A stretch of 12,847 nt of DNA from a virus (Duplodnaviria; Heunggongvirae; Uroviricota; Caudoviricetes). The stretch lies in IMG/VR virus record IMGVR_UViG_2695420763_000016, positions 1-12,847 of that record; one strand, written 5' to 3'. Shown here in pieces: positions 9,001 through 12,000 of the stretch. The position numbers were made by a program. Each line of letters begins with the position of its first letter. The first letter of the stretch is position 1.

Positions 9001-12000
9001 AGAAAAGACGAATGTCACTTTGATACAAAAAGAGAAGCTTTTTGTTGTAAGTGATAATTAATGATATAAATATAGTTTTATGTGCTTTTATTTTTTACTA
9101 AAGCAAAATTAAGTTATTAAAATGGAGGGAGAGGAATGCCTGTAGATTTAACGCCTTATATTTTACCTGGGGTTAGTTTTTTGTCTGACATTCCTCAAGA
9201 AACCCTGTCTGAGATACGTAATCAGACTATTCGTGGAGAAGCTCAAATAAGACTGGGTGAGTTGATGGTGTCAATACGACCTATGCAGGTAAATGGATAT
9301 TTTATGGGAAGTCTTAACCAGGATGGTTTATCGAATGATAATATCCAGATTGGCCTTCAATATATAGAACATATTGAACGTACACTTAATCATGGTAGTT
9401 TGACAAGCCGTGAAGTTACAGTACTGCGTGAAATTGAGATGCTCGAAAATATGGATTTGCTTTCTAACTACCAGTTAGAGGAGTTGTTAGATAAAATTGA
9501 AGTATGTGCATTTAATGTGGAGCATGCACAATTGCAAGTGCCAGAGAGCTTACGAACATGCCCTGTTACATTATGTGAACCAGAAGATGGGGTATTTATG
9601 AGGAATTCAATGAATTCAAATGTTTGTATGTTGTATGATAAAATGGCATTAATACATCTTGTTAAAACAAGGGCGGCTCATCCTTTGAGCAGGGAGTCAA
9701 TCGCAGTTTCAATGATTGTAGGAAGAGATAATTGTGCTTTTGACCTTGACAGAGGTAACTTCGTTTTAAAAAATTAAGATAGCAATGGCGGGTTAACTTT
9801 TCGTAAAATGAAATTAATTCTCGGTACGACATGTAAAACGCGGCACCTCGTATGCAAGAACGTACTGCGGTTGGCTGGTGAACTTTCGATAGTGCTAGTA
9901 TTGAATGATTTCCAGCCGTTACCGATTTACGTGTTTATTAGTGAACAAACCACTCGTCAGAAGATTCCCAGGTATCTTTCAGAGTCTCCTGAACAAATGT
10001 TTTTGCAGAATCCTTATCTGCAGTGCGTGTAACAGAAAGCCCATCATTGCTGGTGGCTTTTACGATCACTTCTACATCGTCATAACGCTTACTGATGCGC
10101 CGAGTTAATTCTTCCTTTAACGCATCCACAGCACCGTTTGGCATTTTAGTCATTTTCTCTTTGGCTATGCAGATTTCAATACGCATAAAAATCCCTCTAT
10201 ACTGTGTTTGTATACAGTGTTATTTTTATCTGTATAAATAAACAGTGTCAAGAGGTCTTGTTTCTGCTCTTTTGGAGTTCTTCAAAACGATTATGTAAAG
10301 ATTTCGGATACAGTTCGGTATATACCTGCCATAGCACGTTTAATGAACGATGCCCTGTAACTTGAGCGACTTCCTCAATACTAAAACCAGCCTCAAATAA
10401 GCGACTTGCCCCTTCTCTACGCAAATCATGATATCGCAGATCTTTAATACCTAATTTGCTTCTTACCCTCTGAAATCCTGCGGTAACAGAAGTGCTGTTA
10501 TATGGAAAAATGAATTCTGATTTTTTTGGTTGTCGCTGGACGATATCCCAGGCTTCCCCAAGCAAGGCAACTTTCATATGGTTACCTTCCTTTTTACGTG
10601 GATCTTTCCTATCTCTTACTAGTATAGATTTTTGTTCTTGGTCGAGATCTTCCCATCGTAACCGGCATACTTCTCCGATTCGCATACAGGACCACACAGA
10701 AAATTTGAGGATATCAACGAACGGAATTTTTGAGCATTTATGAGTAGATCGTTGTTGAAGGCCTTCAATGAGCATGTCAAGTTCATCAGATGCTGGTCTA
10801 CGATTACGACGGTTTGATTTACCAATCAAACCGAGTTTAAGTAGATATGGACGAGCGCTTTTCGCCGGGTTTGATGTGTAATTGGTTCCGTATACAGGTT
10901 TTGCCGCATCCAGAACACTGCCAAGATAACTAACATCGTGGCTGACTGTTGCTGGGCCTGCACCAGCGTTGTTTCTTAGCCTGCAATGTTCAATTACGTC
11001 ATTTTCTGTCAGTTCAGATAGTTTGATCGCGGATATGTCACTATCCATAAGCAGTTCCAGCACATATCTTTTAGTACGGCCTGCTTTACCTCCGGCATTT
11101 GGGTCATTTAAATATTTGTGTAGTAAGTCACGGACTGTAAGTCCGTCAACTGCATTTGATGATGGAATGCCATATAGATCTAATTCCATCACTTTCTGTG
11201 TGCCCCATGTTTTGGCATGAGCATGTTTAGGGAATGTTTTGCTTTCCCTGTAAGTGATAACACCTTTTTCTTTGATAATCACATTACAGCGATAGCGTGG
11301 TGTGCCATCGGATTTTAGTCGTTTCTCTATGTTATAGTACGCCATTACACGACCTCGTTATTTCGGGTTCCCATAAAACGTGGGAACCTGTGCGGGAACC
11401 TAACGCGAGAAAAATAGCCTGAAATGTTCAAAAATGCACGATAATCATGAAGCACAAAAAATTAATCAAACCAGCGTGATGCCTGAAAAAACTGGTGTTT
11501 ACTGGAATTCTCGGTTTAGCATTGCTCCTATGCTCGACTGGACGGACAGACATTGCCGCTATTTCTTGCGTCTGCTTTCCCGCAATACGTTGCTGTATAC
11601 TGAAATGGTAACTACAGGGGCGATTATTCACGGTAAAGGTGATTACCTGGCGTATAGTGAAGAAGAACATCCGGTAGCGTTGCAACTCGGCGGTAGCGAT
11701 CCGGCGGCGCTAGCGCAGTGTGCGAAGCTGGCAGAAGCGCGTGGATATGATGAGATCAACCTGAATGTCGGCTGCCCGTCTGACCGGGTGCAGAACGGCA
11801 TGTTTGGTGCGTGTCTGATGGGTAATGCGCAGCTGGTTGCCGACTGCGTGAAAGCGATGCGCGATGTGGTGTCGATTCCGGTGACGGTGAAAACGCGTAT
11901 TGGCATCGACGACCAGGACAGCTATGAATTTCTCTGCGATTTCATCAACACCGTTTCCGGCAAAGGCGAGTGTGAGATGTTCATCATCCATGCACGTAAA

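Follow-up and report, generated by a model that had tools for sequence, protein, structure and literature searches.

A dinI-like gene behind two predicted LexA operators at the integrase end of Escherichia coli lambdoid prophages

A small gene of the DinI family, preceded by two palindromes resembling LexA operators, lies close to the integrase gene in the prophage DNA analysed here (12,847 nucleotides, positions 1 to 12,847 of IMG/VR virus record IMGVR_UViG_2695420763_000016, Caudoviricetes; hereafter, the window). The locus raises the question of whether this dinI-like gene is controlled by the SOS response, and which role an additional DinI protein may play in the prophage or in its host. 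The best explanation, to which we assign a probability of roughly 0.75, is that the gene is a LexA-controlled, SOS-inducible moron encoding a paralogue of chromosomal DinI. LexA control of the gene is strongly supported in silico.

LexA-controlled dinI homologues are already known from Salmonella prophages (PMC3121763, PMC8072944), SOS promoters with two operators are known from lexA, recN and the colicins, and DinI-like genes are routinely annotated in the E. coli phages considered here. The two-operator layout and the cassette boundaries reported below, of which no description was found for the E. coli clade in the searchable literature, are refinements of a known gene class.

Predicted promoter and operators of the dinI-like gene

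The features of the locus are listed in Table 1. The first-pass annotation had described two perfect CTGT-N8-ACAG boxes 10 bp apart and a perfect TTGACA -35 hexamer ahead of the gene. Both boxes are indeed perfect, and the hexamer was found by direct reading and by a promoter scan, but the boxes are separated by 12 nucleotides; their centres are 28 bp apart. In contrast to the -35, the -10 hexamer is not consensus (AAAAAT is weak), as the combination of TTGACA, an 18-nucleotide spacer and AAAAAT matches at only 10 of 12 positions. Transcription is predicted to start at approximately position 10215, given a -10 at 10227-10222. With this start, box 2 spans from about -4 to +16, and box 1 constitutes the spacer. 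The placement of box 1 between -35 and -10 and of box 2 over the predicted +1 fits promoter occlusion, and either box alone, when bound, would occlude RNA polymerase. On the minus strand, the linker joining box 2 to the ATG (10186), TATAGAGGGATTTTT, holds the Shine-Dalgarno sequence. The same promoter was annotated in the mEp460 copy by its depositors. No plus-strand promoter in the operator region, which would be antisense to int, was reported by the promoter scan.

The two boxes are the only CTGT-N8-ACAG matches in the window, where 0.21 are expected by chance. A LexA motif scan, as advised in the first-pass annotation, was run using a symmetrised position weight matrix derived from 26 E. 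coli boxes known in the literature; the matrix is approximate, and only the K-12 dinI box was checked against the genome. Both boxes score like authentic SOS boxes. The heterology-index-like (HI-like) scores of the 20-mers in this approximate matrix, 6.2 for box 2 (the best in the window) and 7.0 for box 1, are in the range of the lexA, uvrA and yebG boxes scored in the same way, and neither score was reached in 1000 Markov-1 random windows (P < 0.001 per window). Both boxes conform to the description of LexA regulon operators, namely the consensus TACTGT(AT)4ACAGTA, a CTG-N10-CAG core and an HI within the binding range.

Table 1 Features of the dinI-like locus and of its surroundings. Coordinates refer to the window.
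Feature	Position	Strand	Basis or remark
-35 hexamer TTGACA (consensus)	10246-10251	minus	direct reading, promoter scan
Predicted LexA operator 1, 20-mer CACTGTTTATTTATACAGAT	10228-10247	minus	perfect CTGT-N8-ACAG
Operator 1, 16-mer core CTGTTTATTTATACAG	10230-10245	minus	directly abuts the -35 hexamer; fills the -35/-10 spacer
A-rich gap between boxes, ATAAAAATAACA, 12 nucleotides	10229-10218	minus	direct reading
Probable -10 hexamer AAAAAT, 18-nucleotide spacer	10222-10227	minus	promoter scan, 10/12 matches
Alternative -10 TAAAAA, 17-nucleotide spacer	10228-10223	minus	
Predicted LexA operator 2, 20-mer CACTGTATACAAACACAGTA	10200-10219	minus	perfect CTGT-N8-ACAG
Operator 2, 16-mer core CTGTATACAAACACAG	10202-10217	minus	covers the predicted transcription start
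Shine-Dalgarno GAGGG, 6 nucleotides 5' of the ATG	10193-10197	minus	direct reading; purine-rich counterpart in relatives
DinI-like protein gene, 82 residues	9938-10186	minus	ATG at 10186, stop at 9938; Pfam PF06183
Shared 3' element, transcribed after dinI	9835-9931	minus	conserved in relatives; resident b-region sequence
Long hairpin in the 3' element	9873-9917	minus	
Terminator-like hairpin in the 3' element	9839-9872	minus	followed by TTTT (9835-9838)
Three NleG type III effector genes	7774-8352, 8425-9054, 9136-9777	plus	
Tyrosine integrase gene	10248-11345	minus	Pfam Phage_integrase, 74.6 bits; directly upstream of dinI, same strand
Host gene dusA	11434-12471	plus	RefSeq; adjacent to the integrase gene, divergent

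A scan of IMG/VR and GTDB genomes identified 84 loci encoding 96-100% identical proteins, with 4 near-identical loci recovered from genome contigs using the single protein as query; the 64 loci with at least 70 nucleotides of upstream sequence are referred to as close relatives. Two CTG-N10-CAG boxes are present in all 64, both of them perfect in 59, and the dinI-like open reading frame (ORF) is likewise intact throughout; TTGACA is found in 55. Variation occurs mostly at inner positions of the boxes, as in TTATTTAT, TTATCCAT and TTATTTGT.

More divergent phage DinI-like genes (48-80% identity) were obtained from a profile scan of viral contigs. The succession of -35, box, A-rich -10, box, ribosome site and ATG is kept in several clades whose proteins are 54-80% identical, including L124, L129, L153-155, L160, L128 and L133. 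The -10 counterparts in divergent clades read AAAAAT, AAATAT or AATAAT, the second base always being A and the sixth always T. When 12 promoters are aligned, the invariant positions are ACTG/CAG in box 1, CTGT/CAG in box 2 and a few within the -10, while TTGACA is nearly invariant. The aligned promoters thus provide a phylogenetic footprint of the two predicted operators. Centre-to-centre distances differ between clades (24 to 29 bp), and it seems that the promoter elements, and not the other box, determine where each box is placed. The first-pass annotation had considered LexA repression likely to be cooperative; the variable spacing argues against cooperative binding of the helically phased kind. 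The sharp induction threshold also suggested there is possible, yet not implied by the sequence.

The same data bear on a different reading of the palindromes, which, rather than LexA operators, may be AT-rich dyads that arose by chance, or recombination sites close to att, such as integrase arm or IHF sites. The region is AT-rich and adjoins both int and att, and LexA boxes resemble -10 elements. However, both sites beat all of the random windows, and CTG-N10-CAG is retained in every close relative. The layout also persists where the neighbours are unrelated and the integrase is a different one or absent (smpB/ssrA, prfC, yecD, IS110), and the core of box 1 in some clades is identical to the proven chromosomal dinI box CTGTATAAATAACCAG. 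On account of the statistics and of the conservation beside unrelated neighbours, this reading was rejected as extremely improbable.

The identity of box 1 with the chromosomal operator concerns the 16-mer core of divergent clades such as L124, L129 and L155, and suggests a dinI promoter as the ancestor of the prophage promoters, to which a new -35 and a second box were added. The promoter of chromosomal K-12 dinI contains one box, ACCTGTATAAATAACCAGTA, over the -10 (TATAAA), and its -35 is TTGTCA; in the prophage promoter, two boxes flank the -10 and the -35 is consensus. Other clades have a single box, including clades of 77-78-residue proteins with a near-consensus box located 19 nucleotides from the ATG, as reported for the genes of the Salmonella prophages Gifsy. 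SOS promoters with several operators, such as those of lexA, in which the boxes are about 21 bp apart, recN and the colicin operons, host two LexA dimers each, as predicted for the promoter described here. In colicin operons, two dimers lead to very tight repression and to expression in few cells (PMC2994835). Colicin boxes overlap, whereas those of the dinI-like gene bracket the -10 at the distances given above, and cooperativity is therefore not implied.

A third LexA-like 20-mer, TACTGGATGGATTTTCAGTT (8567-8586), is located within the second nleG gene (8425-9054), 142 nucleotides into the coding region. Its HI-like score of 9.0 is close to that of the weaker authentic boxes in the matrix and was reached in 3 of the 1000 random windows. 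The other two nleG paralogues lack this sequence, which could be either a chance match or an intragenic LexA site.

Cassette boundaries and distribution

Sequences located 5' of the -35 vary by context, and feature dusA and the integrase gene found in the window, another integrase gene, smpB/ssrA, yecD-aspS, prfC or an IS110-type transposase gene. As the flanks differ beyond it, the -35 marks one edge of a cassette. On the opposite side, about 100 nucleotides downstream of dinI are conserved, and relatives diverge completely approximately 105 nucleotides past the dinI stop codon. The same 100 nucleotides or so are found in HK97, HK75, mEpX2 and the Shiga toxin 2 (Stx2) phage 1717, all of which lack dinI, the match ending about 7 nucleotides from the dinI stop codon. 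In HK97 the element (2501-2599 of locus L168) is located between tfa and the annotated sib retroregulation site. Because it is present in phages devoid of dinI, the inserted unit comprises the promoter and the ORF only, and uses the resident terminator region. On these comparisons, the feature is best described as a moron, i.e., an accessory unit of promoter and ORF that spans about 320 bp (positions 9932-10251, approximately) and was inserted into a lambdoid prophage at its att/int end.

The unit has its own promoter, and its presence or absence between conserved phage segments is defined by sharp boundaries. It thus resembles the lambdoid morons defined for HK97 and HK022, which are small genes with their own promoter, located between conserved phage segments and cleanly absent in some genomes. 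Unlike morons made of promoter, gene and terminator, however, the cassette appears to supply promoter and ORF only and to borrow the resident terminator region. The stem of the terminator-like hairpin includes 4 pairs with compensatory changes in the RNAalifold prediction, but the hairpin is shared with phages lacking dinI and is weakened in the window, where the stem carries two mismatches and is followed by a run of four T only; in most relatives it is less degraded. No intrinsic terminator was found after dinI by a simple scan of the window, because of these two mismatches and of the short TTTT run. No Rfam match at gathering thresholds was found in the whole window, and only sub-threshold noise was obtained in the 9700-10350 interval. 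The 3' element may be a leftward terminator, part of int retroregulation or the source of a small RNA derived from a 3' untranslated region, all of which are candidate roles.

At the promoter edge, the integrase stop codon TGA (10250-10248) is embedded in the -35 hexamer of dinI (T-TGA-CA). There is no terminator between the two genes, and integrase transcripts should therefore read into dinI through the two LexA-bound operators.

The cassette is always found at the att/int extremity of lambdoid prophages, pointing inward and convergent with tail-fibre or cargo genes. It is present in 1661 of 5426 complete E. coli genomes (about 30%), at 2666 places in total and in up to 6 places per genome, and genomes of enterohaemorrhagic E. 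coli (EHEC) carry up to six copies. Sequenced phages with the cassette number 67, and include mEp460, YYZ-2008 and Stx1a-, Stx2c-, Stx2d- and some Stx2a-converting phages. In phage 1720a-02 (KF030445.1, 1284-1498), a dusA-integrating Stx2 phage, the match is limited to the promoter and the 5' half of the cassette (about 10041-10255 of the window), and this dinI copy appears to be truncated. In many IMG/VR prophage contigs (L023, L041, L043, L058-L070, L122-L148 and others), the dinI-like ORF begins at base 1-7 or ends at the last bases. Its occurrence at contig ends indicates that prophage-boundary callers cut there, which fits the extreme att-proximal position.

The closest parallel with experimental support for SOS control is provided by Gifsy-1, -2 and -3, in which a dinI homologue directly follows a LexA box and a sigma-70 promoter. 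A tagged Gifsy-2 homologue accumulates after mitomycin C treatment, and induction by mitomycin C is abolished when the Gifsy-2 box region is replaced by araC-PBAD (Lemire, Figueroa-Bossi and Bossi 2011, PMC3121763). All three homologues are up-regulated by nalidixic acid, and have one box 19 nucleotides from the ATG (PMC8072944), in place of the two found in the E. coli cassette. The Gifsy genes are located about 1.3 kb downstream of replication genes and are first in an operon with an antirepressor gene and irsA (PMC3121763). In contrast, the E. coli gene is a single gene followed by a terminator-like hairpin; it separates the tail-fibre/cargo region from int/att, in a prophage encoding a self-cleaving S24 repressor. 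Tum of coliphage 186 and the split tum/dinI of PSP3 and Fels-2 are likewise LexA-controlled phage genes featuring a DinI-like module (PMC3121763). In these P2-like phages, the module is fused or adjacent to an antirepressor, a part that the E. coli cassette lacks.

By analogy, the dinI-like gene could be the first gene of a LexA-controlled operon acting as an induction switch, the payload of which is a small downstream antirepressor that inactivates a non-cleavable repressor, as the Gifsy dinI homologues are followed by the gfoA/gftA antirepressor genes and by irsA (PMC3121763). A 56-residue ORF (9662-9832, minus strand) occupies the corresponding position in the window, but it overlaps the 3' end of the convergent nleG and has no match in Pfam, NCBIfam or PHROGs. 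No antirepressor gene immediately follows dinI, the terminator-like hairpin is located after it, and the divergence of relatives past this point leaves no conserved downstream gene. In addition, the prophage repressor is YmfK-like and carries the Peptidase_S24 self-cleavage domain (92.8 bits), and is therefore of the CI type, which needs no antirepressor. An antirepressor operon of the Gifsy kind is very improbable for these three reasons, i.e., the lack of a conserved downstream ORF, the presence of a terminator and a cleavable repressor, and was rejected.

The DinI paralogue and its possible roles

Assignment of the gene behind the double operator to the DinI family, as made in the first-pass annotation, is borne out by Pfam, PHROG, PDB sequence matches and predicted fold. 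The Pfam DinI profile PF06183 is matched along its entire length (positions 1-63 of 63) with 67.2 bits, compared to a cut-off of 24.2, PHROG 189 ('RecA filament binding protein DinI') with an E-value of 9.5e-31, and the E. coli DinI structures 1ghh and 7ywa over their full length (residues 1-81) with an E-value of 2.2e-12. The protein scores 70.2 bits against the NCBIfam equivalog NF007893, which describes chromosomal DinI and has a cut-off of 111, and is therefore a paralogue, not an orthologue, of chromosomal DinI. The two proteins have similar lengths (82 residues, and 81 for the product of chromosomal dinI, b1061) and are about 47% identical in a full-length alignment (E 2e-12). They share the predicted beta-alpha-beta-beta-alpha fold and the RecA-contact residues, as well as a promoter controlled, or predicted to be controlled, by LexA. 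In contrast to chromosomal dinI, the prophage gene is mobile, occurs in multiple copies and is found at the ends of prophages.

The AlphaFold2 model has a mean pLDDT of 65, with values below 50 for the last 9 residues. Its predicted elements (E2-8, H9-14, H19-34, E39-45, E50-54 and H58-73) include the beta-alpha-beta-beta-alpha order and the C-terminal helix. The only significant PDB matches of the model are DinI alone (1ghh) and DinI on the RecA filament (7ywa), with TM scores of 0.72-0.75 and a probability of 1.00. According to cryo-electron microscopy, DinI contacts RecA through a hydrophobic pocket (L13, L21, W71, W77 and F78) and an acidic patch (E24, E69 and D76) (Gao et al., PMC9926225). 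The aligned residues of the 82-residue protein are M15, L23, W73, W79 and F80, and E26, D71 and E78, respectively; five of the eight are identical, and three are conservative replacements. As the contact residues are kept, binding of the protein to the RecA filament may reasonably be inferred.

Taken as a LexA-controlled moron, the cassette would function as follows. In an undamaged lysogen, LexA dimers would occupy both operators of a promoter that is otherwise strong, having a consensus -35, and the gene would be silent. DNA damage would activate RecA and lead to LexA self-cleavage; once both operators are vacated, the promoter would fire and the DinI paralogue would accumulate. The protein would then bind in the groove of the RecA filament, where UmuD, CI-type repressors and other ligands of the groove would be its competitors, and would add to the SOS-inducible dosage of DinI. 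The extra DinI would stabilise filaments and compete with later-acting substrates. Tuning of RecA-dependent repressor cleavage, as envisaged in the first-pass annotation, is plausible because the repressor of this prophage is itself of the S24 type. The hypothesis that a DinI-like gene limits induction has been voiced, without data, for Stx2a phages (PMC8456039).

Several points weigh against this explanation. The LexA matrix is approximate, and the structure model is of moderate confidence only. The weak -10 makes the strength of the promoter uncertain, and some LexA-independent transcription is possible, given that int reads straight into the cassette. Experiments on the present E. coli clade were not found in the searchable literature, which contains annotation-level mentions and one speculation; LexA binding and induction are consequently predicted from sequence. 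Induction did not change significantly when the dinI homologue of Gifsy-1 or of Gifsy-3 was removed by a non-polar deletion (PMC3121763). Finally, the prophage in the window is defective, which leaves the gene little induction of this prophage to modulate; a benefit would have to be exerted in trans or on the host.

In an alternative reading, LexA control is real but the gene mainly tunes the SOS response of the host, by limiting UmuD cleavage and mutagenesis or by stabilising RecA filaments for recombinational repair, and would thus be a fitness factor of the lysogen, not a modulator of induction. DinI preferentially blocks UmuD processing, and the RecA-contact residues are conserved in the paralogue. 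Intact cassettes persist in defective prophages, such as that inserted in dusA. E. coli DinI stabilises RecA filaments (PMC9926225), a DinI-like prophage gene has been associated with the evolution of quinolone resistance in E. coli (PMC10575684), and induction was unchanged in the Gifsy deletion strains (PMC3121763). Such a putative role is compatible with the tuning of induction; the two are not exclusive, since both would result from binding in one RecA groove. We consider a predominantly host-level role a serious candidate, with odds somewhat below even, and no less likely than an effect on induction.

A bolder extension of the moron hypothesis, which we regard as doubtful, concerns timing and dosage. 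Dual operators might delay expression until LexA is nearly exhausted, i.e., late in the SOS response, when CI-type repressors and UmuD are cleaved. The multiple copies carried by EHEC prophages (Stx1a, Stx2c, Stx2d and some Stx2a converters) might then jointly act as a dosage-dependent competitor for the RecA groove, and thus determine how much damage is needed to induce Stx phages and how heterogeneous their induction is from cell to cell. If true, this would be a form of crosstalk between prophages mediated by RecA instead of by repressors.

If both the regulation and the RecA binding are real, additional DinI genes induced by DNA damage are present in about one-third of E. coli genomes and in many Shiga-toxin phages. 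Shiga-toxin release in enterohaemorrhagic strains depends on RecA-driven prophage induction, and SOS-triggering antibiotics are of clinical concern in such strains; a RecA modulator encoded in multiple copies could, if it exists, influence the amount of toxin and phage released by a population. As they stand, the results mainly document a tidy and conserved regulatory design in a gene class for which LexA control is already established in prophages of Salmonella.

Host prophage and neighbouring genes

The 9600-10400 region matches chromosomes of E. coli O157:H7, for instance NZ_AP018488.1, with 100% identity. RefSeq annotation and family scans define the gene order as tail genes J, lom and stf with a tail-fibre assembly remnant, three nleG genes, the dinI-like gene, the integrase gene and dusA. 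The location of the dinI-like gene between effector cargo and int had been noted in the first-pass annotation; the nleG genes lie on one side, and the tyrosine integrase gene on the other. The prophage is about 38 kb in length, is inserted in dusA and reaches back to a dusA fragment. It features ISEc8 in the exonuclease gene, a truncated antiterminator gene and frameshifted portal and J genes, and has no annotated replication genes. In spite of these defects, the dusA prophage (NZ_AP018488.1, 5155000-5198000) retains the three nleG genes, along with a gene for a PerC-family regulator and the dinI cassette, which is intact.

The first-pass annotation had also proposed that the gene may influence the neighbouring cargo. 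There is no sign of nleG control, nleG being convergent with dinI, apart from the weakened terminator of the copy in the window. This exception leaves room for SOS-induced read-through from dinI, which would enter the convergent nleG (9136-9777) in antisense orientation and reduce expression of the effector under DNA-damaging conditions. The two genes are 160 nucleotides apart, no intrinsic terminator was identified by the scan of the window, and the mismatched stem with its four-T run sets this copy apart from most relatives. However, the argument is purely structural, transcription may still end at the long upstream hairpin and at what is left of the stem, and in most contexts the cassette has no effector neighbour. 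Read-through of this kind is unlikely, in our view.

RefSeq reports a partial 'capsid protein' pseudogene at 9808-9927 on the plus strand (12209-12328 of locus L001), which overlaps the 3' element and the 3' end of dinI on the opposite strand. The corresponding ORF (9808-10032, plus strand) has no family match in Pfam, NCBIfam or PHROGs, and the RefSeq feature seems to be artefactual. The lexA gene of the host is located only about 4 kb from the left end of the dusA prophage.

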